Source: Promethearchaeota archaeon Loki_b31 (GTDB taxonomy: Archaea; Asgardarchaeota; Lokiarchaeia; Sigyniarchaeales; SOKP01). From it: a DNA stretch of 15,900 bases. The stretch is taken from assembly GCA_005222975.1 (NCBI GenBank), contig NJBI01000066.1, positions 1 through 15,900 on the forward strand, written 5' to 3'. This document shows, piece by piece, positions 1-15,900 of this stretch. Position 1 is the stretch's first letter, and each line of letters opens with the position of its first letter. The position numbers and the translations under genes were made by a program. The notes beneath the pieces were generated by a model. That model had not been told where the DNA came from, did no database searches, and saw nothing but the letters and a program-made list of their open reading frames with translations.

Positions 1-99
1 CTGCCACACATTGGACGTACCAAAATTAATTGTTAGCTTGAATGACTTTGAATAACTAACACCTATAATAAACCATAACCTTAAAAAGATTTCGATTTA

Positions 100-127
100 A
101 AAAAATGCTAAGAAAAAAAAAATAAAA
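100..127 (-). terminator. Oligo-T terminator after aor
   Basis: Long A tracts on the + strand (T tracts on the - strand) adjacent to the aor stop. Confidence 0.5.
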
Positions 128-1990
128 TTATAAAATTCCAAGTTTTTCTAATTTTTCTTTAGTAGGCCATCCTGTCTCCCTGTCCCAACCACGTTTTTCA
201 TAATAGACTTTTAAGTTTTCTTCTAAATCAACAGCGATTCCAGCTGAACCTCCAGTTTCTAAAGCTGTTGATACAATCTTTGGTAAATAATCATCTTCTC
301 GCCTGCACCCTAGTTTACAAGAGATTAGCCTTTTTAGATTCGAAGCACGTTCTCCCATTTTGAACAAATTTCCACTACTTCCTAAAGATTGAATTCCAGT
401 AGATGCTTTTAATAACCTTGCTAAAGCTGTATCATTAAGATGAGTGAAATTACAAATTACAGCAGAATCGTAAACATTTGTTAAATCTTGGTAAAACATT
501 ATAGCTTTTTCTCTTTTATTTACTGTAAATCTATCTTTTTTTCTAATTTTTTGGAATGAAGCGGCATCACCATCAATATTAAAGAAATCACCCTTATTAT
601 GGTTTGCTCCTGTACAACCTGTCATGTAAGTAAGAGCTTGCCCAAGATATGCACGTGGATCATGCATTGGTACTTCTAAACCTTTTACATGAGCCGCTAA
701 ATCGGGATCAACACCCAGCTTTTCAGCCATTATTTTTACTCCCTCCGCTAATATGTTCCCAATTCCTTCTCTCCTAATAATTTGGTCTAATAATTTCAGA
801 ACAATTTTCTCATTTCCCCATCGAATTTCTTCAAGATTGATTTCATTTAGATATTTATTAATTTCATCCTTAGCAATGTTATTCTCGACTAAATATATTA
901 AAAATGATATTGATACTCCACTAGAAATTGTATCTAGCCCTTCAAGATTACACATATGGTTTGCTTTGATTATTGGTTTAAAATTAAGGATGCCACACAT
1001 TGGACCATAAGCAGCAGTGGTTTCGTATTCGGGACCATCAACTTCAGTCTCAATCCCATCGATTTCTGCCAAAGTTTTCCTCCCACAACCAATAGCACAT
1101 CCCGCACAGGCATACTTTAAAACCACATATTGCTCTTTTAATGCTCGCCCTGTAAGATCCTCTGCTATAAATTCAGTGTTAGTAAAATAGTTTGCTGGAA
1201 CATCTCCTATAACCATACCCATATCAGTGTATATTAAAGTTCCATAGTGAGAAAACATGTTTGATGCAAAAGAGATCATTACATTTTCTGATGTAGCTTT
1301 TCCTTGATTTCTTAATTCCTCCTTATCGAAATATTCGATTGTTTGGCTTCCTTTGATCGCAATAGCTTTTAATTTCTTTTTACCCATGAGTGCCCCTAAT
1401 CCACACCTACCCGCTGCTCTTCCCTCATCATTAATTATTGCAGCATACTTTACTAAATTTTCACCTGCTTTTCCAATACAAGCAATCCTAAGTTTATCAT
1501 CATCTAGAATCTCTCTAATTGACGTTATTGTTTCCCGTGTATTTTTTCCCCAAATATTTGCAGCATCTTTAATTTCGATTTCTCCATTATTAACTTGAAT
1601 GAATTTAGGCTGTTCACTTTCACCAGTGATTACTATTGCATCATATCCACTTCTCCTTAATGCAATCGGAAAAAAACCTCCTGAAGTTGATTCACCCCAA
1701 ATCCCTGTAAGAGGCGAAATCCCTGTAACACAATATCTACTACTAGAAGGTGTAGTAGTTCCTGTTAAAGGCCCTGTTGCAAAAATCAATGGGTTTTTAC
1801 TGAACAATGGGTCTTTTTGCAAGGTTTGATAATCACTTTCAGTAAGCAAATCATGTGTAAGCTTAGCTGAAAGCCCAGCTCCTCCTAAATAATCCTCAGC
1901 AATTTTCGGATCGAGATCCTTTACTTCTACATCTAAAGAACTTAAATCAATATACGCTATTTTACCATTATATCCATATAGTTTATCCAT
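128..1990 (-). CDS. aor: Tungsten-dependent aldehyde:ferredoxin oxidoreductase family protein
   Basis: 620 aa. N-terminal GYNGKIAYIDLS, SPLTG, GRCGLGALMGKKKLKAI, Fe-S motif CAGCAIGC, GPEYET, GLDTIS, HDPR, late Cys (SAVICNF) and YYEKRGWD C-terminus are all AOR-family hallmarks. GGAGG SD upstream overlaps the adh stop. Confidence 0.95.
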   Translation of the reverse strand: MDKLYGYNGKIAYIDLSSLDVEVKDLDPKIAEDYLGGAGLSAKLTHDLLTESDYQTLQKDPLFSKNPLIFATGPLTGTTTPSSSRYCVTGISPLTGIWGESTSGGFFPIALRRSGYDAIVITGESEQPKFIQVNNGEIEIKDAANIWGKNTRETITSIREILDDDKLRIACIGKAGENLVKYAAIINDEGRAAGRCGLGALMGKKKLKAIAIKGSQTIEYFDKEELRNQGKATSENVMISFASNMFSHYGTLIYTDMGMVIGDVPANYFTNTEFIAEDLTGRALKEQYVVLKYACAGCAIGCGRKTLAEIDGIETEVDGPEYETTAAYGPMCGILNFKPIIKANHMCNLEGLDTISSGVSISFLIYLVENNIAKDEINKYLNEINLEEIRWGNEKIVLKLLDQIIRREGIGNILAEGVKIMAEKLGVDPDLAAHVKGLEVPMHDPRAYLGQALTYMTGCTGANHNKGDFFNIDGDAASFQKIRKKDRFTVNKREKAIMFYQDLTNVYDSAVICNFTHLNDTALARLLKASTGIQSLGSSGNLFKMGERASNLKRLISCKLGCRREDDYLPKIVSTALETGGSAGIAVDLEENLKVYYEKRGWDRETGWPTKEKLEKLGIL

Positions 1991-2002
1991 TTTCTTTTCC
2001 TC

Positions 2003-3310
2003 CTATTTATAAAATAAATCCATTAGATCTTCTAATTTATTTTCGTATGCTGTTTCTAATATCTTTCTATATTGTGGGGGATTAATTCTACGAGTAGATG
2101 ATAACGTGCAATAATCATTAAACGCGAAATCAACCATTTGATCTATTTGTTTTTTATATTCTTCCTTTGGGATGTTGGGATTATCAAGCTCTTGGATTGA
2201 TAAAGGACAATTTACCTCGTCCATGAAATTCCTTAAACTAACGAGCAAATCTCTCAATATTTCGGCTCTATCTCGATCTTGAATTTTAATCCCAAAAAGC
2301 TTCGCAAGATCAAAGAATCTGTTAGTGACTTTTGCTTGAAAAGCAATAGATGCACATAAAAATAATCCTACACATATCCCATGATGAACGTGGAATAGAG
2401 CTCCAAACGAATGACCTAATGAATGTTCGATGCCACCAGATATGTTTCCAAAACCTATACCTGCGATGTAAGCTGCTATTTGCATTTTTTCACGGGCTTC
2501 CATATCGCTTCCTCTTTTAACAGAACGGGGTAAATATTTTAAGATCAGCTCAATTGCTTTCAAGTTATGCATATCTGTAAATAACGTACTCATTGTAAGC
2601 ATGTAAGAACCCATTGAATGGGCAAGTGCGTCCATGCCCGTTCCTGTGGTTAAATTAGCGGGCATTGTCTTTACAAAATCTGGATGAAGAACTACAAAAT
2701 CGGGACAAAATTCATATAATACTACCTCCGTCTTCTTCGGTGGATCTCTATCTGTGTCTGTTACAACTGCTATAAATGTAGTTTCTGCCCCAGTTCCAGA
2801 TGTTGTAGGTATTGCTGCTAATATTTTAACCCTTCTCCGGAGGCCAGCGTAGTAGGGAGCACTCATGTTGTTGATATTAATTTCGGGTTTTTCATAAAAT
2901 AACAGAATTAACTTTGCCGTATCCATGGCAGATCCTCCTCCAACAGCCAGAATTACTTTCGGATCGTATTCTTCACAGATTTTAGCCCCTTCAAGTACTG
3001 TATGCTTAGGGACGTCAGGAAGTACATTATCATAAAATTTACTATCAATATTTCGTTTAGACAGCCTGTTAGCAACTCTTTCCCCAAATTTGTGTAAATC
3101 CTTATCAACCACAATTAAAACACGCCTATCATCATCAGATAAATAGGCAGAGAGGTGATTAATAAAATCATTTAAACTATTAGTTCCAACGAAAGTGGTT
3201 TTTGGACTTATAATAGGTGAATGGTAACCCCTAAAAGCATTGGAACTTGCTTTGATATACATATCTTTGAGAAGATCATTTTCATACCACGCAATATCTC
3301 TTCTTGACAT
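2003..3310 (-). CDS. Iron-containing (type III) alcohol dehydrogenase
   Basis: GGGSAMDTAK, IPTTSGTGAE, metal ligands in DALAH and HSLGH...HHG. Lies 12 bp upstream of aor on the same strand (operon). Confidence 0.93.
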   Translation of the reverse strand: MSRRDIAWYENDLLKDMYIKASSNAFRGYHSPIISPKTTFVGTNSLNDFINHLSAYLSDDDRRVLIVVDKDLHKFGERVANRLSKRNIDSKFYDNVLPDVPKHTVLEGAKICEEYDPKVILAVGGGSAMDTAKLILLFYEKPEININNMSAPYYAGLRRRVKILAAIPTTSGTGAETTFIAVVTDTDRDPPKKTEVVLYEFCPDFVVLHPDFVKTMPANLTTGTGMDALAHSMGSYMLTMSTLFTDMHNLKAIELILKYLPRSVKRGSDMEAREKMQIAAYIAGIGFGNISGGIEHSLGHSFGALFHVHHGICVGLFLCASIAFQAKVTNRFFDLAKLFGIKIQDRDRAEILRDLLVSLRNFMDEVNCPLSIQELDNPNIPKEEYKKQIDQMVDFAFNDYCTLSSTRRINPPQYRKILETAYENKLEDLMDLFYK

Positions 3311-3430
3311 TAATATTTTTCACTATTTCGATTGTTTTTTTTATGAATATAATATACCATTATATTAAATATAGTTTTTTAAGCCAAATGAAAAGGTATA
3401 AAATACTTTAAGAACAAATATAAAATTATC

Positions 3431-3925
3431 ATGGTAAAACAATCAAAAGAAAAAATCTTAGCAAAAGCTTTTGAATTAGGTCAAAACTTTGAAAAAAAAA
3501 ATACTGGCTGTGCTCAAACATCATTAGCTGCTATATTTCAAGCATTAGGAATCTGGAATGATGATGTATTTAAAGCCGGAAGTGGGCTTGCTGATGGTTT
3601 AGGACTCACGGGAGACGGATCTTGTGGTGCTCTTGTAGGAGCATCCATGGTAATAGGCTACCTTTTTGGAAGAGAATATAAAGATTTTGGAGATATGTAT
3701 AAACCAATGGAATCATATAGGCTTGTTAAGAATCTTCATGATCAATATGTTGAAAAATACGGTTCTTGTAGATGTCATGATGTTCAAGAATCATTAGTGG
3801 GTAGAACTTATAATTTGTGGGATCCTAATGATCTAAAAGAAGCATTTAATTCCGGAATGATGGAACATTGTTCAAAACTTGTAGGCTCTATTTCCTTCAT
3901 TTTTATCGAACTAAATTTATTTTAG
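3431..3925 (+). CDS. C_GCAxxG_C_C family putative redox-active protein; C-terminus possibly replaced
   Basis: GCAQ, GLADGLG..GSCGALVG, SCRC and late HC motifs. The last ~12 residues (SISFIFIELNLF) come from intergenic-looking DNA. Confidence 0.85.
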   Translation: MVKQSKEKILAKAFELGQNFEKKNTGCAQTSLAAIFQALGIWNDDVFKAGSGLADGLGLTGDGSCGALVGASMVIGYLFGREYKDFGDMYKPMESYRLVKNLHDQYVEKYGSCRCHDVQESLVGRTYNLWDPNDLKEAFNSGMMEHCSKLVGSISFIFIELNLF

Positions 3926-4002
3926 AAATTTAAGATTATAATTTTAAATGTATAATTCTCAAAGCTAAACTATTGTAAAAAGTTTTATTTATTTAATTAA
4001 AT

Positions 4003-4851
4003 CGTGAATATCTTCACGATTACTATAGGAAAACCATTGGTAAGAAGCCGACCCATGCGCTAGTGATGCGCGGTATAGAGCGTCTCAAGCAACATGGTGT
4101 AGAATTTAATATATTAACATTAATTAACAACCAGACCGTAAAAAAAGCTAAAGAGATCTATCGCTACCATTGTGATAATGGTTTTTTTTTCCATCAGTAT
4201 ATCCCCTGCGTTGAATTTGACGAGGATGGTAATCTTAGGCCATTTTCTATTAATGGAGAAGATTGGGGTAAATTTCTCTTCGATTTATTCGAGGAGTGGA
4301 TAAAAGAAGATGTTAAAAGGGTTTCAATTCGTTTATTTGACTCAATTATGGAATATTTAGTCTACGGACGCTATAACGTTTGTTATATGGGAAAAAGTTG
4401 CGTTCAATATTTTGTTGTTGAATACGACGGTAGCGTATACCCGTGTGATTTTTTTGTACGCGATGACCTATTATTAGGAAATGTTAAAACTGATTCATGG
4501 AAAGACCTTTTATTATCTAAGAAATATCAAAGCTTTGGAAATCAAAAAGCAAATTGGAATCAAGAATGCGATTTATGCCCTTATCTTAATTTCTGTCATG
4601 GAGATTGCCAAAAATTTCGCTTTGGAGCGCCTAACTTTTCAAAAGAGTTAAGTGTTCTATGTAAAGGTTGGAAGTTGTTTTATTCTCGTACATTACCTCG
4701 TTTTAAAAGTATAGCAGAAAAATTTAAAGCTGAGCACCAAATTAACGCTCCAACACCCTTTAAAGCAAAAAAGATTGGAAGAAACGAGCCGTGCTCATGT
4801 GGAAGCTGAAAAAAGTATAAATATTGTTGCGGAAATATAAATACTAATTAA
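4003..4851 (+). pseudogene. 5'-truncated anaerobic sulfatase maturase-like radical SAM/SPASM gene with a SEC-C tail interrupted by TGA
   Basis: The frame is open upstream of the called start (EYLHDYYRKTIGKKPTHALVMRGIERLKQHGVEFNIL, typical anSME mid-region) back to a TAA at 3994. The CxxxCxxC motif is absent. SPASM cysteines are present (CYMGKSC, YPCD, CDLCPYLNFCHGDC, LC). SEC-C motif GRNEPCSCGS*KKYKYCC has TGA at 4807-4809 and the next stop at 4849-4851. Confidence 0.85.
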
Positions 4852-4872
4852 ACGATAAAATACTTAAAAAAA

Positions 4873-6012
4873 ATGGCAGATAAAGTAATAATAAATGGAT
4901 TTTGCGACGATCGGTTTATGGCAGTTAAGGAAGTTTTCGCGAAAAACTTTGAAGATGGATTGGATGTCGGAGCTTCATTTGCCGCAACGATTGACGGTAA
5001 ATACGTGATTGATATATGGGCGGGTTATGCTGACGCAGCTAAAACGCAACCATGGGAACGCGATACAATTATTAACGTATATTCAACTACAAAAGTAATG
5101 ACGGTTCTTTGTACGCTCATGTGTGTGGATAGAGGGTTGCTTGACCTTGACGCACCCGTTGCGAAGTACTGGCCTGAATTTGCTCAAGCTGGTAAAGATA
5201 AAATTCTTGTTCGCAATATTCTTAGTCATACTTCTGGTCTATCTGGTTTTGGTAAAATTGTTCGACTTAAAACGCTTTATAATTGGGATCGCATTATTAA
5301 AATACTCGCTGAACAAGAACCTTGGTGGGAACCCGGAACTCAAAGTGGATATCATTCTATAACGCACGGTTATTTATTAGGCGAATTGGTTCGTCGAGTT
5401 ACCGGTAAAACTGTTGGTACATTTTTTCGAGAGGAGGTTGCAATCCCACTTAACGCGGACTTTCACATTGGCTTAGCTGAAGAACACGACCACCGAGTTG
5501 CTGAATTATTACCCCCTGACCTAACCGAAATGGGCGATCTTAAAGACCTTGGACATATTGCTATCAAATCTCTTACTAACCCTATTGTTGAACCTAAAAA
5601 AGCTAGAGATAGAGCTTGGCTAGGCGCAGAGATTCCTGCAGCTAACGGTCAAGGTAACGCGAGATCAGTGGCTCGAGTAGCCTCGTTATTAGCTTGTGGA
5701 GGCCAAGTAGATGATATTCGCCTTCTTTCGCTTAAAACGATTGAAAAGTCGATCGAAGAACAAATTTACGGTATCGACCTCGTTCTAAACAACACGATAC
5801 GCTATGGTTTAGGTTGGGGGTTGACGAGCAAAGAAATGCCGATTAGTCCTAATCCCCGAACATTTTATTGGGGTGGATTTGGAGGGTCTGTAGTTGTAAT
5901 GGACCTCGACGCTAAATTAAGCTTTGCGTTTGTTATGAATAATATGGTGATGTCAATCACAGGCGACCCTCGTACAACTAAACTTGGTGAAGCGCTTTAT
6001 AAATCGTTATAA
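4873..6012 (+). CDS. Beta-lactamase-fold serine hydrolase (family VIII carboxylesterase, EstA/EstB-like)
   Basis: SxxK (YSTTK), LDLDAPVAKYWPEF, LSHTSGL, WEPGTQSGYH and WGGFGGS motifs. Confidence 0.92.
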   Translation: MADKVIINGFCDDRFMAVKEVFAKNFEDGLDVGASFAATIDGKYVIDIWAGYADAAKTQPWERDTIINVYSTTKVMTVLCTLMCVDRGLLDLDAPVAKYWPEFAQAGKDKILVRNILSHTSGLSGFGKIVRLKTLYNWDRIIKILAEQEPWWEPGTQSGYHSITHGYLLGELVRRVTGKTVGTFFREEVAIPLNADFHIGLAEEHDHRVAELLPPDLTEMGDLKDLGHIAIKSLTNPIVEPKKARDRAWLGAEIPAANGQGNARSVARVASLLACGGQVDDIRLLSLKTIEKSIEEQIYGIDLVLNNTIRYGLGWGLTSKEMPISPNPRTFYWGGFGGSVVVMDLDAKLSFAFVMNNMVMSITGDPRTTKLGEALYKSL

Positions 6013-6013
6013 C

Positions 6014-6032
6014 TCTTCTTTTTTATTTTTTT
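6014..6032 (+). terminator. Oligo-T terminator after the esterase
   Basis: TCTTCTTTTTTATTTTTTT directly downstream of TAA. Confidence 0.5.
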
Positions 6033-6155
6033 AAAACAAATACTTCTAATTATGATTTAAAATTTGTCATAACCAATTAGATTTATAAATATAAAAATCA
6101 AATATATTCACACTATTGTAATTAAAAAAAAATTTATTTTAAGAGTAGAAATTTT

Positions 6156-7916
6156 ATGACAGTACCTAAATGGTATGTTGATGATAGTAAACCTTGGCTT
6201 AAGAAATACCAAGATGGCGTCCCAAAACATCCAGAATTTCCAGTTATTAGTTTAGGTGACTGGTTTGACCAAAAAACTGAGGAATTTGCTAAGAATAAGT
6301 GTATATGGTTCGCAAAAACATTCATGAATTATCGAGTACTACGAAAATATACGGATTCTCTCGCTACCTCGTTATCACGGCAAGGAATAAAAAAAGGGGA
6401 TGTTGTCGCAATTCTACTTCCAAATTGTTTCCAATTTACAATAACCTATTTTGCGACTGTTAAATTAGGAGCCATAGTTATTCCGATAAATCCTACATAT
6501 AAACCGCTAGAAATCCTTCATGTGCTACAGCAAGTGAAACCAAAAGGATTGATTTGTATGGATGTAATGTATGGTTTGATTAAACCCATACAAGATAAAT
6601 ATAAATTTGACTTCGTGATTTCTACTTGTATTGTTGATTTAGCTGCGATACCTCCAGCGATTAAGGAGCAAATGCTGACTGATGGGACTATTCCCTCAGG
6701 AGAAGTTCCAGGAGCTATTAATTTCCTTGATGTATGCCAAAAACGTGGTGAAATTGACATTCTGGAAGTTGAAATTGATCCTTTAAATGATCCGGCAGTT
6801 TATTTAATGACTGGAGGAACAACAGGTGTTCCCAAACCTGCTATTATCACTCATTACAACTGTGTGACTAATGCTAAGCAAAATGTTATGTGGATGCCTG
6901 ATGCCTCTCACCCAATTGCATGTATCGGTATTTTACCCATGTTCCACGCTTTTGGGATGACAATTGTTCAAAATGTCGTTATTGAAGGGGGCGATTTTAA
7001 CATTCTTTTCGCAAAAAGAGAATTGGAATTAAAAGAAGTGGTAGATACCATAATAGAAGTTGGTCCTGAAGGTGGAGTTATTTTACCAGGAGTTGAAAAT
7101 CTTTTCATTGGTCTAACTCGCTATTTAAAAGCGAATCCCGAGCCTAGATTGGAAAAAATGTTTCGTTTGTGCGTTAGTGGTGCGGGACCGCTTCATAAAC
7201 CCGTAAAGGATGCATTCGAAGCAATCAGTAATGGACACCTTGTTGAGGCTTATGGACTTACGGAATGTACAACTGCAGTAAGTATAGGTCCATTCAACGG
7301 AACAGATACCCCAGGCACCATTGGTTTACCATTACCGGGTGTTGAATGGGCTATATTCGATTCAGAAGATTTCAGTAAGGGACAATTAAAAGGTTACGGA
7401 ATAGATTTTACAGGAGAAATCTGTGTATGTGGTCCACAAGTAATGAAAGGTTATTTAAATAGGCCTGAAGCCACAGCAGAAACCTTAAAGGAGTGGGAAG
7501 GACGAATTTGGTGTTTAACTGGAGATATTGGATACATGGACGAACACGGCCAAATGGTTATTCGAGATAGAAAGAAGCAAATGATTAAATATAAGGGTTA
7601 TTCCGTTTTTCCAAAGGAAGTAGAAGACCTATTGGGAACTCACCCTGATGTAATGGAAGTAGCTGTTTCTGGGTTGCCTGATCTTGAAACGGGAGAACTA
7701 GTAAAAGCATGGGTCCAACTAGAAGTCGAATCAGTGGGTAAAGTTACTTCTGAAGAGCTAATTGCTTGGAGTAAAGAAAATATTACGCATTATAAGTGCC
7801 CTAAACAAATTGAAATTATTGACGAAATTCCAAAATCTATGGTTGGAAAAGTCCAGAGAAGGGTTTTACAAATCAACGATCCTATCTGGAAAGAGAAATA
7901 CGGAGAAACTCAATAA
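6156..7916 (+). CDS. Long-chain fatty acid--CoA ligase (AMP-binding, FadD-like)
   Basis: MTGGTTGVPK, LPMFH, YGLTE, GPQVMKGY, TGDIG, DRKK and PKSMVGK adenylation motifs. Confidence 0.93.
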   Translation: MTVPKWYVDDSKPWLKKYQDGVPKHPEFPVISLGDWFDQKTEEFAKNKCIWFAKTFMNYRVLRKYTDSLATSLSRQGIKKGDVVAILLPNCFQFTITYFATVKLGAIVIPINPTYKPLEILHVLQQVKPKGLICMDVMYGLIKPIQDKYKFDFVISTCIVDLAAIPPAIKEQMLTDGTIPSGEVPGAINFLDVCQKRGEIDILEVEIDPLNDPAVYLMTGGTTGVPKPAIITHYNCVTNAKQNVMWMPDASHPIACIGILPMFHAFGMTIVQNVVIEGGDFNILFAKRELELKEVVDTIIEVGPEGGVILPGVENLFIGLTRYLKANPEPRLEKMFRLCVSGAGPLHKPVKDAFEAISNGHLVEAYGLTECTTAVSIGPFNGTDTPGTIGLPLPGVEWAIFDSEDFSKGQLKGYGIDFTGEICVCGPQVMKGYLNRPEATAETLKEWEGRIWCLTGDIGYMDEHGQMVIRDRKKQMIKYKGYSVFPKEVEDLLGTHPDVMEVAVSGLPDLETGELVKAWVQLEVESVGKVTSEELIAWSKENITHYKCPKQIEIIDEIPKSMVGKVQRRVLQINDPIWKEKYGETQ

Positions 7917-7920
7917 ACAT

Positions 7921-7940
7921 TATTCTTTTTTTTTATTATT
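7921..7940 (+). terminator. Oligo-T terminator after the acyl-CoA ligase
   Basis: TATTCTTTTTTTTTATTATT just downstream of the stop. Confidence 0.45.
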
Positions 7941-7986
7941 ACTTCTACTTTTTAATTCTATAGGATAGGATATAAAGAATTTTGAT

Positions 7987-9066
7987 TTGAAAAAATTGAT
8001 TAAGTACGAGACGGAACGATATATCGTTTCACAAATTAATGGTAAGTTAACAGGACAAGAAAAAGACCATAACATTTTAAAGAAAGATGATGTAGTATTA
8101 ATCCAAAAGCTAAAAAAAGGAAAAGAACTATTAAAATCTGTTTCTGACGCATTCGATAAAATTGAAGCTGAGTCTATAATTAATAAAGGAGATATTGTTG
8201 CTATTAAAGTAAATTTAGGTGGTGGTATTGATTATGTCCCTACTACATATTCAGACCCAGAGATTTGTGAAGCAATAATTAAAAAACTTCGAATAATGGG
8301 CGCCAAACCGTTTGTTTGCGAAGCTAATATGAGAGCGCGTATCATCCACGATAAGTTGTTAAAAATTAGGGGTTATTTTGATATGTTAAAGAGAAATAAT
8401 TGTAAATTTGTAAACTTATCAAAATATAATACCGTAGAAATGCATTGCCATCATCTAACAATACCATTAAGATTACCAGAAATTTTATTAAAACCACAAG
8501 TTAAAATTGTAAGCTTTGCTCCTCCTAAGCATCATTGGGAATGTGGAATTACTTGTAATCAGAAGAACATGTATGGAGCCATAGCAGAATTTAGAAAATC
8601 AAAATATCATCGTAAGTATGAAAGAATTGATCGAGCTATAGCCGCTGCTGCCAGAATAATGTCTCCCGATATCAACATTTTAGCTGCTTTCGATATAGGT
8701 ACTGGAGTAGGTCCACATTTTATATACTCCGTAGAAAACTTTGATCGTATGATAATCTCTAAGGATATGATAAGAGGAGACAAAGTTGCTTCAGAAATCC
8801 TTGCTTATCAGTTTCATCTCGTAAAATATGCAATGATTAATACAAAAGGCAAAAATATTGATTACTCCTTACATCCTGATTCAAGTTGGCCAGACCAAGA
8901 TTTGCTTGAACTAATAAAAGAACATGTTATGGATTATGGAGAGGTTAATTTTTGGAAACCCATTTTATATCTTCAATATTTTTTACCACATTATCTACAA
9001 ATTAAAATGTTTCCACAAATGGAGTTTTTCTTCACTTGGATTAACCGCGAGTTTTATAGTAATTAG
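7987..9066 (+). CDS. DUF362 domain-containing protein (putative Fe-S protein)
   Basis: GDIVAIKVNL, SDP..EAII and PKHH...ITCNQKNMYG match the DUF362 pattern KxN...KxH...T...KNxxG. TTG start is uncertain. Confidence 0.75.
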   Translation: MKKLIKYETERYIVSQINGKLTGQEKDHNILKKDDVVLIQKLKKGKELLKSVSDAFDKIEAESIINKGDIVAIKVNLGGGIDYVPTTYSDPEICEAIIKKLRIMGAKPFVCEANMRARIIHDKLLKIRGYFDMLKRNNCKFVNLSKYNTVEMHCHHLTIPLRLPEILLKPQVKIVSFAPPKHHWECGITCNQKNMYGAIAEFRKSKYHRKYERIDRAIAAAARIMSPDINILAAFDIGTGVGPHFIYSVENFDRMIISKDMIRGDKVASEILAYQFHLVKYAMINTKGKNIDYSLHPDSSWPDQDLLELIKEHVMDYGEVNFWKPILYLQYFLPHYLQIKMFPQMEFFFTWINREFYSN

Positions 9067-9158
9067 TAATCTAATCAAAGAATAAATTTTTTTATTTTAA
9101 TTTTTATATTATATAGTAATAATTAGGTAGAATTGCTGGAATGTTTTCTTTGTGTAAA

Positions 9159-9695
9159 TCAAGAAATATTTTTCAGTATTCGAAGAGTTAATTCAACAAA
9201 AGCATCTTCAACATTATCTCCTGTTTTAGCAGAGGTTTCAATATACAATAAATTTTCTTTCTTAGCAAATTGTTGGGTATCTTTTCGATCTACAACTTCA
9301 CCAATTTCAGGAATCAAATCTAATTTATTTCCTATTAACACCACAGGAATTTTGTCTTGAATAATTGACCGCATATCATTTAACCATCTTTTAGATTCAG
9401 TATATGTGTTTTCCCTCGTAAGATCAAAAACCAATAATGCTCCATTAGCTCCTTTATAAAAACTACGATTTAGGAATCGAAACCTATCTTGACCTCCGAT
9501 ATCCCATATTGTGAGCTTAGCATTTTTGGATGGTTTATACTCTACATTTTTCATAAGAAAATCTGCTCCAATTGTAAATTTATACTTTAAAGAAAATTTA
9601 TTGTTGACAAACCTATTTATTAGACTAGTTTTTCCTACTGCTCCAGGTCCAATAATTAGTACTTTAAAATTATATTTTGATTCATTCTCATTCAT
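9159..9695 (-). CDS. Rab-like small GTPase (Ras superfamily, eukaryotic signature protein)
   Basis: G1 GPGAVGKT, G2 FTIGADF, G3 WDIGGQ, RFRFL, G4 NKLD, G5 ETSAK. ATG at 9695 is preferred over TTG at 9704. No C-terminal Cys. Confidence 0.95.
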   Translation of the reverse strand: MNENESKYNFKVLIIGPGAVGKTSLINRFVNNKFSLKYKFTIGADFLMKNVEYKPSKNAKLTIWDIGGQDRFRFLNRSFYKGANGALLVFDLTRENTYTESKRWLNDMRSIIQDKIPVVLIGNKLDLIPEIGEVVDRKDTQQFAKKENLLYIETSAKTGDNVEDAFVELTLRILKNIS

Positions 9696-9845
9696 ATCAA
9701 TCAATTGGATTAATTTAATTAATTTATTTGAAAATTTTTTTTTTAATTTTTATTAATATATTAGATATTTTCCTTACTAAGTTATATGCTTTTCTGCAAT
9801 TAATTTTGAAAAAACTTTTTCAACTAATAATGATTTTTAATAGTG

Positions 9846-10288
9846 CTATTCTTTTAGCGTGTAAATTGTATCACAATATTGATCGCCTGCTGCAACGGTT
9901 TTAATAATCTTAAGTTCGACCTTGTCGCTAACTGCTTCACGAAAATACTCGTGGTCGATTGCCATAACGGCTTCGCATAACGCCCTAGCGTATTTTCAAG
10001 ACCAAAAGGACACCTGGTGCCTTGAATTTGAAATTTTTCATCTGAGACAGAAATTATCTTAACAAAATTAGGATTAAAGCTCTTTGAAAATGCATGTGCT
10101 ACAGTTGTTAATTTATTATCTGGTAATTTTTTCATTACTTTTAAGCCTAAAGCACGACCTTGTCTTCCACAAACACTTTCTATAATAGGTAATGCTTCAT
10201 TTCCGAATTTTTTATAAAATTCTTTTATCAATATACCTTGAGCTTCTATGGGATTATTTGGCAATTTTTCCGAATTTTTTTGAACCAT
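9846..10288 (-). pseudogene. Frameshifted L-2-amino-thiazoline-4-carboxylate hydrolase-like (ATC_hydrolase / V4R-like) gene
   Basis: After TRCPFGLENT the family-like sequence continues in another frame: RALCEAVMAIDHEYFREAVSDKVELKIIKTVAAGDQYCDTIYTLKE* (TAG at 9846-9848). This restores the CP...LC...D...T.A.GD..C pattern and implies a 1-nt loss near 9988. Confidence 0.8.
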
Positions 10289-10391
10289 TATATTATCAAC
10301 CTTAGTAAATATACTTAAAGATTCTATTTAAAAATTTTTTTAATGAAGAAAAAAACAATTATTATCTTTTGACTCTATGTCGTAAAGCGAT

Positions 10392-11204
10392 CTATTGTTT
10401 AATAAAATTGTACTTTCTTCCATATTTCTTAAAGAATTTCATTCCACCACCCTCTTGCAGAACTTTAATTGCTGATTCAGAATCAATTATATTCATACCT
10501 CCAACGATATCCACACCTTTATCAAATAAAATATCAGGTAGAAAGCTGATGCTTGGTCCGATTAAAACAACATTTTTAGCTTTGTTTTTAAACACAGATA
10601 AGATCTTTTCAAGTGTATTATTGATTAACGATGTTCCTGTACAAAATAGAATATCTATTGCTAAATTACTTTCCTTTAAATCGTCGATATCATTTAATAT
10701 TGGGATATTTTGATAAGATCTCTTAATTGAAGGGTTGTTATCAATTATGCTAATGAATTTGGTTTTGTTCAAAATCTTTCTTATCATAGGTTTCATGAAA
10801 CCAATGAAGAGGATTTTTGTAGTTTGTTTTATTTTTAAAAAATCTACTAAATCTTCCTCAATCTCTTTATATGGGGATTTCACTGCTAAAATATGTTGAG
10901 ATGCAGCATTTAAAGTTGCGATACCGATAATTTTTTCTAAACTAGGAGTTTGATATGACCAACTTATTAATTCTTTAAAAGACTTATCAGTTAAGCTTCC
11001 TGCAAAATCGATTTTGGTACAATTAGTTGATTGTATAATAGCAGGTAAAGTAGCCGCTAACCCTAAAAAGGGATCGTAAGCTAAGGCTTCTAATTCAACG
11101 CCCGTATATCCCAACCCAATAACTACTTTACTAACTCTTGGTGGTATGATTTTATGATATTTATAGATATTTAGAACAAGTTTAACAGTGTTCTCTAAGA
11201 TCAT
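10392..11204 (-). CDS. DUF364/DUF4213 family protein (enolase-N-like plus Rossmann-like domains)
   Basis: VVIGLGYTGV, IGIATLNAASQ, IGFMKP, TGTSLINNTLE..L, GPS and GVDIVGG motifs. Confidence 0.85.
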   Translation of the reverse strand: MILENTVKLVLNIYKYHKIIPPRVSKVVIGLGYTGVELEALAYDPFLGLAATLPAIIQSTNCTKIDFAGSLTDKSFKELISWSYQTPSLEKIIGIATLNAASQHILAVKSPYKEIEEDLVDFLKIKQTTKILFIGFMKPMIRKILNKTKFISIIDNNPSIKRSYQNIPILNDIDDLKESNLAIDILFCTGTSLINNTLEKILSVFKNKAKNVVLIGPSISFLPDILFDKGVDIVGGMNIIDSESAIKVLQEGGGMKFFKKYGRKYNFIKQ

Positions 11205-11335
11205 AAAATTTTAACCATATATTCCCTTAATATCTTCTTTTTATTATGTTTAATAATCTTATTGATTATTAAAACTCTGTTTAAATATGAAGTATAATTA
11301 TCTAATGTAATATTCCTTTTTTTAGTGATTACTTT

Positions 11336-11713
11336 ATGGATTACATAATTATTGAAAACGAGAAAATTGGTCAAATTAAAGCTAAATTACTTACTGAAAA
11401 AAATCCGGAAACCTGTAAAACAATTTGGGAAAACCTCCCTTTTGAATTGAATTTGTCTAGATGGGGGGAAGAACTATATGGAGAAATCCCCGTTTCAATT
11501 GAAAAGGAGAATTCACAGGTTGTTTGTGAAGTAGGTGATATTGGATACTGGCCCGATGGAAAGGGGTTTTGTATCTTTTTTGGTCCCACTCCAGTGAGTA
11601 AGGACGATAAACCAAAGTCAGCATCTCCAGTGAATATCTTTGCTAAAATTGAAGGAGATGCTAAAATATTCAATCAATTTTCTTCATTCAACGGAAATGT
11701 ATCTAAAGGATAA
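11336..11713 (+). CDS. Cyclophilin-like fold protein (DUF369 / TM1367-AF2241-like)
   Basis: PETC..IWENLP, WGEELY, VGDIGYWPDGKGFCIFFGPTP and ASPVN motifs. Confidence 0.88.
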   Translation: MDYIIIENEKIGQIKAKLLTEKNPETCKTIWENLPFELNLSRWGEELYGEIPVSIEKENSQVVCEVGDIGYWPDGKGFCIFFGPTPVSKDDKPKSASPVNIFAKIEGDAKIFNQFSSFNGNVSKG

Positions 11714-11827
11714 TAGATAGTTGCTCTAAATTTAATAAATAACAAATTAATAAAAATGTGAAGACTTATTCATACGACAACACAAGATCAAAGTGAGAAA
11801 CTCGACAAACGTCTTTTAATCATTTTC

Positions 11828-12985
11828 ATGATACAATTTACGGAAGTTTTAGGATTTAGCAGTGTGATGCCTATAATTCCATTTTTAGGAATTTCTTTAG
11901 GTTTGAATGCGTTTCAAGTTGGCTTAATTCTAAGTATTTTTAGCCTATGCCAACTTTTCGCTAGTCCAATTACTGGAAAACTTAGTGATAAATACGGAAG
12001 AAAACCTTTACTGCTTTTCAGTCAAACGAGCACGCTAATAGGATTTTTTCTCCTTGGAATCGCTATTAATGTCTGGATATTAGTTGCAGCTCGTCTTGTA
12101 GACGGTTTTCTTGGAAGTAATATGACTGTTGCTCAAGCGTATATTAGCGATGTGACAAATCCTAAATATCGAACTAAAACTTTCGGTTATTCAAGCGCTG
12201 TTTTTGGTGCCGGGTTAATATTTGGGCCTGTAATTGGTGGAATATTATCAACAATTAACTATTCGGTTCCCATGTTTTTTGCTGCTGGAGTTAGCCTTCT
12301 CTCCATAATATTGGTATTAATTTTTTTACCTGAATCACTAAATAAAAAAGAGAGAGAGATTAAATTAGATTTCAAGTTCGGAGATATAATCCCAATTATA
12401 GAAGCCAAAAGATTCTTTAAAACGGCTAAAATTCGGGGTATTTTAGTGGTTTTTTTCATCTATAATTTCGGGTTTTTTCTATTCATTTCAACATTTGCAC
12501 TATTGGCTGAAAAACAATTTAATGTTACTGTCCTAGAGGTTAGTTTTTACATGGCCTGGATTGGAGTGCTTAGGGTCATTTTCCAAAGTGCTCTCATCAA
12601 TCCATTATTGAAGAAGTTAAGTGAAAACACAACTCTGAGGGTAGGTATTTTCGCCATGATTTTCACAATGACATTTCTTATTTTTTCCACTAGCTACTGG
12701 ATCGTGTATCTTCCCCTTAGCTTTTTAGCATTTGGATCAGGTGTAGTTCGTCCCATTCTTACTAGTAAGTTAACCAAAGCTGTTAAAAAGGAGGAGACTG
12801 GTAGTTTGCTAGGAGTAAGTAACGCGTTAGCCAGTATTGGTCAGATTATAACCCCAATTCTCGGTGGATTAATCTTACAATTTCTACCTACACAAACGCT
12901 TCCATTCTTTTCAGCAGTTATATTCGCACTTATATTTCTAATATGGAAATGGGTATTTGTCAATTCGGTTCAAGAAGAAAAATAG
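11828..12985 (+). CDS. MFS transporter, TetA/DHA1-like; true start probably upstream of 11828
   Basis: Motif A GKLSDKYGRK, ARLVDG, AYISD, motif C-like GLIFGPVIGG and about 12 hydrophobic segments. The frame is open to 11762 and encodes the rest of TM1 (KLDKRLLIIF). Confidence 0.92.
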   Translation: MIQFTEVLGFSSVMPIIPFLGISLGLNAFQVGLILSIFSLCQLFASPITGKLSDKYGRKPLLLFSQTSTLIGFFLLGIAINVWILVAARLVDGFLGSNMTVAQAYISDVTNPKYRTKTFGYSSAVFGAGLIFGPVIGGILSTINYSVPMFFAAGVSLLSIILVLIFLPESLNKKEREIKLDFKFGDIIPIIEAKRFFKTAKIRGILVVFFIYNFGFFLFISTFALLAEKQFNVTVLEVSFYMAWIGVLRVIFQSALINPLLKKLSENTTLRVGIFAMIFTMTFLIFSTSYWIVYLPLSFLAFGSGVVRPILTSKLTKAVKKEETGSLLGVSNALASIGQIITPILGGLILQFLPTQTLPFFSAVIFALIFLIWKWVFVNSVQEEK

Positions 12986-13234
12986 CAAGTAATAAAATCT
13001 AAAGAACAAGTTATTAACTGATAATTTTTTCATTTTTCTTTTTCAATTCTTCGTAATATCACCATAATATCGAGGTAATAGGTTAATTTTCCAAATGAAT
13101 GATATATAAGTATTCCATTTAATAATTTTTTAAAAGAAGAAGAAAACAAAAATCTGATGATGGATATTTTTATTGAAAACGAAAAAATAAAGTAAAGAAA
13201 GGAGACTAGACCTAAAGCATTTAAAATTCTAAAC

Positions 13235-13825
13235 TTAATTTTCGAATTTATCTAGAATCTCTTTTGAGATATTTCGCAAATTATTATTAAAATCTAATCT
13301 AAATCCTTTTAGAATCTCTTTAAAATCGCTTTCTAGATCCATCCTTTTTAATCGAAAACGAAGGTATTTCCAATCTAATTTATCCTTATTCGCAATGATA
13401 ATTTTTAAGATATCACTAATATCGATCGAACTACGATCAGATCTCCCAAGTTTTGTCAAGATATAATCTTCAACGGCTAGCACATAAACATTATCAAAAA
13501 ATTTTTGTATTCTTCCGACCATTTGTTCATCCCAATGAAAAGCATCACAAGGTTTTAACCATATCTCTGCTTCCCCGAGCTTTCCGAATACTGTAAATAA
13601 ATTATGAATTATTTTTGGTTTTTGGACAGTTGAAATCTCGTTTTGATTCAAGGCTTCAATAAATCTGTTTAACTCTTCTTGAGACATAATATATATACAA
13701 ATATCAATATCTAGCGTTGTTCTTGCTACGCTATAAGCTGGAAGAGCTAATCCACCAATAAGAACGATAGGAACCTTACAATCGGCAGCTATTTTTAAAA
13801 TTGTTTGAAGAAGATCACTTATCAA
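13235..13825 (-). CDS. Nucleotidyltransferase (Pol-beta superfamily, DUF6036/AbiEii-like)
   Basis: LIGGLA......RTTLDID catalytic motif, EDYILTKL...R...D..DI, and C-terminal LDWKYL. Confidence 0.82.
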   Translation of the reverse strand: MISDLLQTILKIAADCKVPIVLIGGLALPAYSVARTTLDIDICIYIMSQEELNRFIEALNQNEISTVQKPKIIHNLFTVFGKLGEAEIWLKPCDAFHWDEQMVGRIQKFFDNVYVLAVEDYILTKLGRSDRSSIDISDILKIIIANKDKLDWKYLRFRLKRMDLESDFKEILKGFRLDFNNNLRNISKEILDKFEN

Positions 13826-13976
13826 CTTGAATCAACTTGAGTATATCTTTAAAAATTTGTTCTGTGGTTTTTCCTCGCTCAATTAGGCGTTGGAACTCCT
13901 CTACTTTTTTATATGCCCGTTCTACATCTGAAAGAGTAACATGAATAGGAGCGCGGGTTTTTTTTTTCACGACCAT
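13815..13976 (-). CDS. Small hypothetical protein (53 aa) not in the ORF track; putative partner of the nucleotidyltransferase
   Basis: Read by hand: MVVKKKTRAPIHVTLSDVERAYKKVEEFQRLIERGKTTEQIFKDILKLIQVDK*. ATG follows AT-rich DNA, and the 3' end overlaps the NTase TTG start by 11 nt. Confidence 0.7.
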   Translation of the reverse strand: MVVKKKTRAPIHVTLSDVERAYKKVEEFQRLIERGKTTEQIFKDILKLIQVDK

Positions 13977-14109
13977 GTTCATTCTTATTACTAAAATAAA
14001 TTTATTCCTTTTTATAATTTTATATCTGTTTATGGTTTATAATTTCTCTCAAACTAAAAATAATATCCTTATATACATAATATATCGTGAAACTCAGCTT
14101 TCATAGTTC

Positions 14110-14151
14110 TTTTTAATGAAAATAATGATGTTTTTAATGAAAATTATGAAG
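14110..14151. repeat. 21-bp tandem direct repeat (2 copies)
   Basis: TTTTTAATGAAAATAATGATG followed by TTTTTAATGAAAATTATGAAG, with 2 mismatches. Confidence 0.7.
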
Positions 14152-14169
14152 AATTTTCAAAATTTTATT

Positions 14170-14268
14170 ACTTAATAAAGATTTATTAAGTTCAAAACAT
14201 TAAACTTAATAAAAAGCAATAAAGTTAAATACGAATTATTCTGTTATCTTAATAACAACCTATTAAGT
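14170..14268. promoter_or_regulatory. Three palindromic operator-like sites CTTAATA-N6-TATTAAG
   Basis: 14171-14190 CTTAATA-AAGATT-TATTAAG; 14205-14224 CTTAATA-AAAAGC-AATAAAG (2 mismatches); 14248-14267 CTTAATA-ACAACC-TATTAAG. Each is followed by TT. Confidence 0.7.
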
Positions 14269-14284
14269 TAAAAAAGTGATAAAA

Positions 14285-14617
14285 ATGAAAAAAAAATTAT
14301 CAGAAAAAAACCAGATTTTAGAGCTATTGACCAAAACCGACCTAACTTCTTCTAAAATTCACGAATTAACGGAAATCGACAAACAACACGTATATATCTA
14401 TTTAAATTCTTTATTAAAAGATAAAAAAATAGAAAGGTTAAACGATAAAAAACCATACATATATTTCGCAGTTAAAACTAAGGAATACTTAGCGTTTCTA
14501 AACGATTTTTTTAAAGATAACATAGAATATCTAATGGGGGATCCTAAAATCGATAAATTCATCGAAAAGAACGAAAAAACGTTCGATAAAATCGAAAGGG
14601 TGGTAACTAATGCCTAG
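14285..14617 (+). CDS. Winged helix-turn-helix DNA-binding protein
   Basis: QILELL...LTSSKIHELTEIDKQHVYIYLNSLLKDKKIER....PYIY fits the wHTH (TrmB/ArsR-like) pattern. ATG at 14285, alternative GTG at 14276. Confidence 0.75.
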   Translation: MKKKLSEKNQILELLTKTDLTSSKIHELTEIDKQHVYIYLNSLLKDKKIERLNDKKPYIYFAVKTKEYLAFLNDFFKDNIEYLMGDPKIDKFIEKNEKTFDKIERVVTNA

Positions 14618-14891
14618 CCTAGCAGAATTAAGAAAACAAAAATTAAAAGAACAGGAAGAAAGAAAAAAAGGACCTGAAGTTAAAAAAGTGCAAAAATCGG
14701 ATTTTACACCGGAAAAATTCCCCAGGGAGAAAAAACCTAAATTAAAAATAAAGACAGATAGAGATGCAAATAAAAAGCGTTTACTAAACAGAATTACTAA
14801 TACACTTGAAGGGGAGATGGAGAATATTCCGATTGAGGTTTTCAGAAGTTTTGATTTATTTTTTAGAACAATAAAAGAAAGAGGTAAATAA
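14610..14891 (+). CDS. Small Lys/Glu-rich hypothetical protein
   Basis: ATG overlaps the upstream gene end by 8 nt and has a G-rich SD (GGGTGGT). Charged N-terminus, helical C-terminus. Confidence 0.7.
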   Translation: MPSLAELRKQKLKEQEERKKGPEVKKVQKSDFTPEKFPREKKPKLKIKTDRDANKKRLLNRITNTLEGEMENIPIEVFRSFDLFFRTIKERGK

Positions 14892-14894
14892 AAA

Positions 14895-15290
14895 ATGTGT
14901 AAATGTAAAAGATGTGGAAGAACGCTAAAAAATCAAAAATCAAAAAAATTGGGTTACGGTCCTACTTGTTATCGGATCGTTCAACTACAAAAAATACAAC
15001 CTAAAAAACTTGATATGATAGAAATAAAACGGTTTATTACTTCAGAAATTCAAAGAGCTTTTAGAGATTCCAATTTTAATAGAATTGCTACACAACATAA
15101 CGGTTCTGAAATAGTTCCAATTAAAGTTGATAAACCACCTAAATTTGATTCAATAGAAGTGGATAAACGACTAGTTATAAAGGAATTAAAAAACCAATTG
15201 GAAAAAGGAATCGAAAACATACTTCATAAAGTTGGAAGTTTTGACGATCAGATTGCTTTTATTGAAATTCCTGTGGAAATTTCCACTTAA
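14895..15290 (+). CDS. DUF6011-like zinc-finger protein
   Basis: N-terminal CKRCGRTLKNQKSKKLGYGPTC matches the CxxCGRxLxxxxSxxxGxGPxC signature. SD GAGGT; starts 3 nt after the upstream stop. Confidence 0.8.
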   Translation: MCKCKRCGRTLKNQKSKKLGYGPTCYRIVQLQKIQPKKLDMIEIKRFITSEIQRAFRDSNFNRIATQHNGSEIVPIKVDKPPKFDSIEVDKRLVIKELKNQLEKGIENILHKVGSFDDQIAFIEIPVEIST

Positions 15291-15314
15291 TTAATTTTTT
15301 TTCTTTTTTTTTTT
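15291..15314 (+). terminator. Archaeal-type oligo-T terminator
   Basis: TTTTTTTTCTTTTTTTTTTT immediately after the operon stop codon. Confidence 0.6.
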
Positions 15315-15596
15315 AAGATTTAGACATTTAGACGTGATTTATATCAACTTAAAAATAATCGATTGAAATTTCGCCTTAAAACGAAGGTTTTTTGGCGATT
15401 TATTAGAGATATGATTTTAGATACACAATTTTATAAATTTTTCTAGTTTTTTCGAATTCTTTCAAAAATTCTGCAAATCTACATAGTAGAGTTGTAAAGT
15501 CTTGAGAGTTTAATGACATAAAACAATAACGTCTTATTTTTATTGTATCTCTTATTTTGGTTAAATTTACAACTTTACGATTAGAAGGCAAATCTC

Positions 15597-15699
15597 GATT
15601 TCAGGAAGATAATTTTATCCTGGATAATATGTAATTTTTAAAAAAATATGGCCATCCTGAAATCAAAAATTTACAAAATATTTGGATCCAGGATAAAAT
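15597..15699. repeat. Two interleaved inverted repeats sharing a TCCTG(G/A)A core
   Basis: GATTTCAGGA (15597-15606) pairs with TCCTGAAATC (15655-15664). ATTTTATCCTGGAT (15612-15625) pairs with ATCCAGGATAAAAT (15686-15699). Both pairs are perfect. Confidence 0.75.
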
Positions 15700-15806
15700 C
15701 TAAAAAAAAAGTAATTAATTTTTTGATTCCCACAGTTTTTCACTAGAATACAGCTCTTTTTGGGTGATTTCTATCTTTCTTTTGAAAGTATATCTTATTA
15801 TATAAA

Positions 15807-15900
15807 GTGACTGAGATTATTAGTATAACTCCAAAACCTAAAACAATTGATTCGAGCCATGGAGGTCGTTGGACAATTGTAAAGAATGGGATAGGTCCAT
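15807..15900 (+). CDS. Possible 5' end of a gene running off the window
   Basis: GTG-initiated open frame MTEIISITPKPKTIDSSHGGRWTIVKNGIGP..., with higher GC than the preceding DNA. No recognisable motif. Confidence 0.3.
   Translation, partial: MTEIISITPKPKTIDSSHGGRWTIVKNGIGP

Follow-up and report, generated by a model that had tools for sequence, protein, structure and literature searches.

A three-gene wHTH-DUF6011 cassette beside a palindromic attachment site: a probable regulatory operon of integrative elements in Promethearchaeota

Analysis of contig NJBI01000066.1 of Promethearchaeota archaeon Loki_b31 revealed a cassette of three small genes encoding a winged helix-turn-helix (wHTH) protein, a lysine-rich protein and a DUF6011 zinc-knuckle (ZnF) protein. 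With a probability of about 0.7, we regard this trio as a regulatory operon located beside the attachment (att) site of ~10-kb integrative elements of Promethearchaeota, the DNA from 14104 to ~15755 being mobile DNA at a 22-bp palindrome. The wHTH protein most likely represses its own promoter via three operators, and the cassette appears to be a mosaic module swapped among elements. The window, that is, the whole stretch of DNA analyzed, is the complete 15.9-kb contig, ending at 15900, of a 3.5-Mb assembly with 31.5% GC (G000). Labels beginning with G denote genomes, C contigs within them, L individual loci or contigs, and X metagenome runs. The cassette and its left border comprise:

14085-14106, no strand: attL-like junction TCGTGAAA CTCAGC TTTCATAG, left arm and 6-bp spacer chromosomal, right arm replaced
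14110-14151, no strand: 21-bp tandem repeat (1.9 copies with 94% matches at 14110-14149) between the junction and the first operator
14171-14190, 14205-14224 and 14248-14267, no strand: three operators CTTAAT-N8-ATTAAG, from pattern count and conservation
14225-14231, no strand: TATA-like TTAAATA between the second and third operators, a putative promoter element assigned from sequence
14285-14617, + strand: wHTH gene, 110 aa, predicted autorepressor (PF01978; alternative GTG start at 14276)
14610-14891, + strand: lysine-rich protein gene, 93 aa (ORF; no family match)
14895-15290, + strand: DUF6011 ZnF protein gene, 131 aa (PF19474)
15295-15314, + strand: oligo-T run T8CT11 following the last stop codon, by sequence a likely archaeal operon terminator

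The junction lies 64 bp upstream of the first operator, and its palindrome is broken in the right arm at 14104. Synteny with the closest relative G017, which is 95% identical to the window across 9100-12988, stops at 14056, and with other members of the genus at 14103-14104. At the equivalent place G021 and G004 carry an intact TCGTGAAA CTCAGC TTTCACGA; the same intact palindrome is also found in G136, and the G034 copy is broken, with other foreign DNA behind it. In G142 and G131, half-sites of this kind separate the chromosomal genes from the cassette. G000 contains a single copy of the trio.

The same trio was found on L034 (CAYPBR010000011.1; 10,678 bp, 24% GC), a probably circular element because it has a 55-bp terminal direct repeat. 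Gene order, the 8-nt overlap and the 3-nt gap are the same as in the window; the wHTH, second and ZnF proteins are 81%, 42%, and 54% identical, and DNA identity is 80% across 14170-14736 and 71% across 14980-15321. An attP-like palindrome, TCGTGAAA GGATAA TTTCACTC, is located ~100 bp upstream of the first operator, and palindrome, operators and trio follow each other as in the window. The corresponding 19-mer, with the same spacer and intact arms, occurred in two Promethearchaeota genomes of the window's family (0 control matches). L034 also encodes a tyrosine-type integrase (Phage_integrase, E 2e-20; top NCBIfam match archaeal XerA), a ribbon-helix-helix (RHH) NikA-like protein, a Cas4-like PD-(D/E)xK nuclease, a 768-aa protein with a weak Pox_D5 match, and an HAD-like protein. 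It was deposited in a 'Candidatus Woesearchaeota' bin; since its integrase, cassette and att site are all Promethearchaeota-like, and the integrase gene has counterparts with 64-71% DNA identity in many genomes of that family to which the window belongs, this binning is probably wrong and the host would be a Promethearchaeote. We know of no helper virus for L034. As a side observation, 93 bp of G000 (C14:61383-61475), ~3 kb from a CRISPR array, are 91% identical to the 3' end of the L034 Cas4-like gene, which suggests that a host cas4 gene and the L034 nuclease gene exchanged sequence; two CRISPR arrays of G000 are located at C14:64453-64969 and C14:76547-77883.

Both ends of an integrated copy could be compared with its empty site at G017:C82, where a 10.1-kb insert separates two genes that adjoin each other in G000:C33. 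The empty site in G000:C33 is an intact palindrome, TCGTGAAA CCACTC TTTCACGA; the junctions of the insert are GATCGTGAAACCACTCTT|ATTCTA and TATGAT|AACCACTCTTTCACGAAC, and attL and attR both contain AACCACTCTT. This comparison places recombination in or beside the 6-bp spacer between 8-bp inverted arms. The layout is that of a tyrosine-recombinase core site, and the integrase gene remains intact on integration. The insert carries a wHTH gene and a second gene at its attL end, and an integrase (66% identical) and an RHH gene at the other end; the C-terminal part of its second gene is 82% DNA-identical to the L034 second gene. The view of the preliminary description that the trio belongs to a mobile element, as a module or a remnant, is thus supported by L034, by the att sites of G017:C82 and by the junction at 14085-14106.

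A pattern search in G000 revealed six perfect CGTGAAA-N6-TTTCACG palindromes (no strand; C14:27414, C33:1852, C34:47230, C35:57867, C94:1674, and C97:14753), where fewer than 0.1 were estimated by chance. All have 6-nt spacers, each spacer is different, and most copies lie between convergent genes. Two more palindromes are near-perfect, with a single mismatch in the right arm (near copy at C56:11437). AbrB/SpoVT-like and PIN-like gene pairs, judged from translations, were observed directly beside att-type palindromes in L049 (G004:C180, 1640-2300), L048 (G021:C11, 1-100), and G000 (C34:46456-47129). The possibility that the palindromes serve as AbrB operators was rejected, because the copies are mostly found between convergent genes and integration is proven for the one at C33.

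Logan contigs of four metagenomes were aligned to 12900-15900. Run X1, from marine sediment, is probably the source metagenome because it contains 75% of the sampled words. In this run the flank 12900-14103 (contig depth 57.5) continues as CGAAC... through an intact palindrome, and the cassette, 14418-15630, is covered with 0 mismatches by a contig of depth 4.51. Contigs covering 15774-15900 returned to depths near that of the flank (59.6 vs. 57.5, 31.4 vs. 20.6, 66.1 vs. 52.8, and 4.8 vs. ~6 in the four runs) and differ from the window before 15774, delimiting a foreign stretch from 14104 to ~15755. The cassette-bearing form is a minority haplotype; the depths, coarse figures because they are per-contig means and not read counts, put it at roughly 8%. 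A coverage shift, one of the checks named beforehand, is present. The sequences that follow 14103 and precede 15774 in the majority haplotype were found neither in the metagenome-assembled genome (MAG) nor at any locus examined.

Upstream of the wHTH gene, CTTAAT-N8-ATTAAG occurs at three sites with at most one mismatch, compared with a shuffle mean of 0.31, and none of 200 shuffles reached three sites. The whole assembly has three exact sites, two of them upstream of the wHTH gene, and this is its sole cluster. In the homologous cassettes of G142 and L034 the operator arms are kept and the centers are variable. The third operator would cover the expected transcription start. The 21-bp tandem repeat is absent from the stretch common to the G142 and L034 cassettes, whose homology starts at 14170, and is possibly an arm-type site. 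A sigma-70 and hairpin-terminator scan gave nothing above shuffles; such a scan is not relevant to archaea.

The wHTH protein matched the TrmB-type family PF01978 with 26.4 bits, a marginal pass against the gathering threshold of 25.6, and MarR/ArsR-type wHTH structures with E-values from 5e-4 to 1e-2. For the cassette proteins, PADLOC returned only weak wHTH-type matches (Csa3, E 6e-5) and one further match, to PDC-M49B, at E 0.004. Homologues fell into 24 clusters at E <= 0.001, of which 21 are 71-95% identical, and 19 of these 21 are on contigs under 8 kb. In G142, which belongs to a different genus of the same family, the protein is 86% identical and the DNA between the first operator and codon ~23 of gene 2 is 83% identical, which points to horizontal spread across genera. 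No similarity could be detected between the wHTH gene of the window and that of the G017 element, and the latter is preceded by its own repeats, ATGATA/TATCAT.

An 8-nt overlap (ATGCCTAG) joins genes 1 and 2, genes 2 and 3 are 3 nt apart, and the starts of genes 1, 2, and 3 are preceded by GTGAT, GGGTGGT, and GAGGT, respectively. In protein 2, the N-terminal ~25 residues (MPSLAELRKQKLKEQEE...) are conserved and the C-terminal part is exchangeable. No family was found for it in Pfam, NCBIfam and PADLOC searches; an ESM Atlas search gave nothing usable, and the ESM Atlas model is of low confidence (pLDDT 0.57). Protein 3 matched DUF6011 (PF19474) with 37.1 bits vs. a gathering threshold of 26.6. 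According to its model it consists of an N-terminal cysteine knuckle with two short helices (residues 1-33, pLDDT ~89) and long helices at residues 41-58 and 86-113. C4, C7, G22, and C25 are invariant among 15 relatives, giving only three invariant cysteines. This form, with an N-terminal knuckle and two long helices, is represented by 66 representative clusters at E < 1e-10. A fold search with the model found no PDB match, a profile search against PDB sequences found nothing, and the longer ZnF relatives showed no informative domain fusion. The wHTH and DUF6011 assignments, the three coupled genes with their overlap, gap, Shine-Dalgarno-like motifs and oligo-T run, and the three palindromes with the tandem repeat had all been described from the bare sequence, and each was recovered where it had been placed.

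ZnF relatives that are 33-42% identical were found in 7 of 36 sampled genomes of the genus, as solitary genes with a different neighborhood in each. Together with the break in synteny at 14056 and 14103-14104, this sets the trio apart from syntenic core genes. The solitary genes (L011-L017, in G026, G018, G010, G012, G036, G024, and G033) share, ~90 bp upstream, a conserved stretch AAAATTCAAAAATTATAAATTAG...TATGATTAAAAAGG.TAGAGAAA... despite their differing neighbors; in G018 the gene comes after a 506-aa ORF. These DUF6011/coiled-coil paralogues might constitute a further type of small mobile unit.

Comparison of the cassettes revealed a mosaic. A complete trio of the same architecture is present in G131 with only ~30-35% identity, and pairs of the wHTH gene and a second gene, without a ZnF gene, are present in G142, G062, G091, G017, and L051, a 1.2-kb metagenome contig that was the sole relative from JGI and has a different second gene. 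The trio therefore recurs at other loci, namely in L034 and G131, and the doubt raised beforehand, that the three genes might never co-occur elsewhere, no longer holds. By these comparisons the pair of wHTH and second gene is the recurrent core, with the ZnF gene as an optional addition. Homology between cassettes always starts at the first operator and ends inside gene 2, past the conserved N-terminal ~25 residues: DNA homology within gene 2 ends at 14677 with G142 and at 14736 with L034, and alternative C-termini, with the divergence point at 14685, are encoded in L051 and in contigs of run X2. With L034, DNA homology ends at 15321, just past the oligo-T run. In L029 (G142:C53), we observed P-loop ATPase genes (548 and 339 aa) and a gene for a 288-aa protein behind the pair, at 3127-9343, which are defence-like by eye.

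From these data the following mechanism is proposed. A Xer-like tyrosine integrase of the element family would recombine in the 6-bp spacer of TCGTGAAA-N6-TTTCACGA palindromes. A dimer of the wHTH protein is predicted to bind the three CTTAAT-N8-ATTAAG operators and, since these flank the TATA-like box and cover the expected start, to repress its own three-gene transcript, which would end at the oligo-T run. The block of operators, wHTH gene and first ~25 codons of gene 2 would be swapped among elements like an immunity region. Protein 2 is probably an adaptor whose conserved N-terminal peptide is tied to the wHTH protein, a contact that we infer, and whose C-terminal part is variable; the DUF6011 protein probably forms a nucleic-acid-binding oligomer encoded by an optional third gene. 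The mobility of the cassette, the logic of its att site, its mosaicism and its minority status are shown by the data, and the repression, the protein contacts and the roles of proteins 2 and 3 are predictions. Regulation, replication and partition had all been offered as functions; the wHTH protein and its operators support regulation, and replication and partition are not supported, as no partition ATPase or Rep gene is linked to the trio.

Several observations weigh against an element-borne regulatory operon. Among the Logan contigs listed, none bridges 14103-14104, and the join therefore rests on the MAG contig and the att logic; the averaged depths behind the haplotype estimate count here as well. 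No second junction (attR, ...CTCAGCTTTCACGA) was found in G000, and at the right border, ~15756, there is only degenerate palindrome-like sequence and the flank is unlike the majority sequence. Neither an L034-like integrase nor any other L034 gene is present in G000, where the sole PF00589 match is Xer-like. Eight other integrase-plus-RHH elements of the family have no detectable trio homologue within 12-16 kb, so that the cassette is one of several alternative modules. IMG/VR contained no relative of the wHTH or ZnF protein, no downstream motif (described below) and no viral-contig match. None of 14 short (26-50 nt) matches to L034 examined in genomes of the family lay in a repeat array, and the 26 spacers of the two G000:C14 arrays match neither the cassette nor any element examined. 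Finally, the TrmB score of the wHTH protein is barely over the cut-off. Two signs that the preliminary description had proposed to look for, relatives in viral sequence sets and CRISPR spacer matches, were thus not found in these searches; of the integrase and att sequences it had proposed to seek beyond 15900, where the contig ends, the attL-like junction is present and the integrase and attR are absent from G000. As had been stated, the window contains no integrase, capsid or Rep gene, and no replication, partition or virion genes accompany the trio in the G000 assembly. Pfam recognized no virion genes in the window or in L034, and several L034 proteins are without any match; archaeal capsid proteins are often unrecognizable. 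Because the G000 assembly holds no integrase and no second junction, we consider the cassette there a remnant or an unresolved edge of an element, with a short cassette placed in trans as a further option. If this option is extended to all of G000, its palindromes would be spacer-addressed landing pads, at which integrases of resident elements would act in trans to move or exchange short integrase-less cassettes such as the 1.65-kb trio. We think this unlikely; if true, Asgard archaea would possess an integron-like or cassette-exchange system in which each such cassette is switched by its own wHTH protein and operators.

The trio could also be a partition cassette, in which the three palindromes are a centromere bound by the wHTH protein and protein 2 is the adaptor, as in the AspA-ParB partition cassette of pNOB8, a Sulfolobus plasmid. 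A small site-specific wHTH gene right after repeated palindromes, translationally coupled to a gene for a basic protein with a conserved N-terminus and a variable C-terminus, would fit such a cassette, as would its presence on a small circular element (L034) that would need stable inheritance. However, no ParA, ParM or other NTPase was found in or next to the trio, and no Walker- or actin-type NTPase domain in the three proteins or the adjoining genes, at the five loci considered (the window, L034, G131, G142, and G017). The operators overlap the promoter, as autoregulation predicts, and elements that integrate have less need for partition; a role in partition is therefore doubtful. Even less can be said for an addiction or defence module, with the wHTH protein as an antitoxin-type regulator and protein 2 or 3 as a toxin or an anti-host or anti-virus effector, although the surroundings are rich in such modules: a DUF6036 nucleotidyltransferase (NTase) pair adjoins the cassette, AbrB-PIN pairs stand next to this palindrome in both G004 and G021, the G142 cassette is followed by ATPase genes, and small genes coupled so tightly are reminiscent of toxin-antitoxin operons. 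Pfam, NCBIfam and PADLOC gave no toxin match for proteins 2 or 3, no defence domains were found and the PADLOC matches are weak; protein 2 is lysine-rich with a low-confidence model, and protein 3 is a cysteine knuckle with a coiled coil.

The trio might finally be a host regulatory operon of a strain-variable region, or the contig might misjoin an extrachromosomal element to the chromosome. The locus is generally hypervariable, as the NTase module is a 1-kb indel and the contigs of several relatives end there; the lack of a bridging contig among those listed and the solitary ZnF paralogues in seven genus members would also fit. Against this, homology breaks exactly inside an att-type palindrome, and the same cassette, near-identical across genera, lies beside the palindrome in the circular integrase-bearing L034 and in two other genomes. 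The shared stretch of ~20 bp is far shorter than the 127-bp overlaps at the ends of this contig, which makes a false join unlikely. Both versions seem very improbable to us, and we retain the regulatory operon of an integrative element as the preferred reading.

As such an operon, the cassette would resemble the immunity regions of temperate phages and integrative elements, such as lambda CI with OR1-OR3. Like lambda CI, the cassette has a small DNA-binding protein, predicted to be autoregulated, and three adjacent dimer-type operators over its own promoter. As in phage immunity regions, a block is exchanged among otherwise different elements, and different elements carry different protein/operator pairs. 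Unlike lambda CI, the cassette has a wHTH fold and an archaeal TATA-type promoter, lacks a divergent antagonist gene and co-transcribes two uncharacterised proteins. ORF80/PlrA (PF05584, NF053660) and the CopG-type regulators of the Sulfolobus pRN plasmids are likewise small DNA-binding proteins on archaeal plasmids, with weak sequence matches only; ORF80 reportedly binds repeats that contain TTAA and lie upstream of the ORF80 gene. The cassette protein scores far under the cut-offs of these families (PF05584, E 0.021, 15.3 bits vs. 20.8; NF053660, E 0.0016, 18.3 bits vs. 95), its best Pfam match is TrmB, and host phylum and element type differ.

The target site of SSV-type integrases lies inside the integrase gene, which does not stay intact on integration (PMC8371274). 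Unlike these, the Promethearchaeota elements target intergenic palindromes with element-specific spacers. In layout they resemble the elements of pNOB8-type and Xer-like archaeal integrases (PMC8371274), with an intact integrase gene and a core of inverted arms around a 6-bp spacer, as in Xer/dif sites. NMV2S, a putative satellite of a Lokiarchaeon virus (bioRxiv 10.64898/2026.08.12.739948), can by its description be likened to L034, which encodes an RHH protein, a weakly D5-like 768-aa protein and a Cas4-like nuclease; the available portion of that description mentions no integrase and no trio of wHTH and DUF6011 type, unlike L034. The DUF6011 (PF19474) proteins of tailed phages, all uncharacterised, share this CxxC...GxGPxC knuckle of ~25-30 residues, and their BFVD models, 30-58% identical, can be superposed at <1 A; the cassette protein instead combines an N-terminal knuckle with two long helices.

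As an autoregulated DNA-binding operon carried by a mobile element, the cassette is of an ordinary kind; the element family with its defined palindromic att site is apparently undescribed. Literature searches found no description of such an att site in Asgard archaea and no paper mentioning DUF6011. To our knowledge, few Asgard mobile elements have a defined integration site, the regulators of none of them have been studied, and no genetic system exists for Promethearchaeota. Together, these loci could furnish a toolkit for site-specific integration and regulation in this phylum: the probably circular L034 and its attP, empty attB sites that match it, one integrated copy for which both junctions are known, a population in which one site is found occupied as well as empty, and a compact predicted repressor-operator unit. 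The cassette also crosses genus boundaries.

Outside the operon, the window contains the following features:

15337-15445, no strand: non-coding segment also kept in a different cassette variant (L051, 91% identity over 15367-15419)
15447-15632, no strand: ~200-275-bp segment missing in some variants (contig joins; absent from L051)
15597-15699, no strand: interleaved inverted repeats TTTCAGGA/TCCTGAAA and TTTTATCCTGGAT/ATCCAGGATAAAA (sequence, fold test)
15743-15898, - strand: 3' end of a membrane-protein gene, the low-depth insert border at ~15756 lying inside its last codons
13235-13825 and 13815-13982, - strand: DUF6036 NTase gene and small upstream gene of 55 aa (Pfam)

The ~500 bp of structured non-coding DNA that had been described after the operon are present as ~450 bp (15291-15742); the structure is only moderately above shuffles (RNA z = -2.2; DNA inverted repeat z = -2.5). 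In runs X2, X3, and X5, contigs join 15358, 15376, or 15425 to 15632-15635. The stretch 15636-15672 is common to L051, and 15647-15672 is common to G009:C404, located among virus-like genes in a genome of the same genus. The motif GGCCATCCTGAAATCAAAA...ATCCAGGA (613-645 in L051; 1350-1375 in L050, which is G009:C404) accompanies wHTH cassettes of differing gene content; in the window, an extra ~200-bp segment upstream of it bears inverted copies of the motif halves, giving rise to the interleaved repeats. A 19-mer of the downstream motif was rejected as a marker, as its 17 genome matches, all but one bacterial, are about the estimated chance number. The membrane-protein ORF is strain-specific and had no relative among 41 other genomes of the genus. 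No tRNA genes or Rfam families were detected in or near the cassette, and a single CRISPR-DR22 match at E 0.31 was dismissed.

Window positions 1-13000 hold ordinary cellular genes, among them those for an aldehyde ferredoxin oxidoreductase, an Fe-alcohol dehydrogenase, a Ras-family GTPase and an MFS transporter. The NTase module (13070-14069) is itself a 1.0-kb presence/absence variant, as contigs of two cold-seep runs join 13069 to 14070. Its insertion via the same palindrome was rejected, since its borders at 13069/14070 are without a palindrome. In G021 the NTase module is located elsewhere, and the MFS gene there directly abuts the palindrome. At the other end of the window, the first 127-135 bases (1-135) recur at 95-100% identity in C38, C78, and C93 (at the C93 end), a repeat or graph overlap that explains the left end of the contig.

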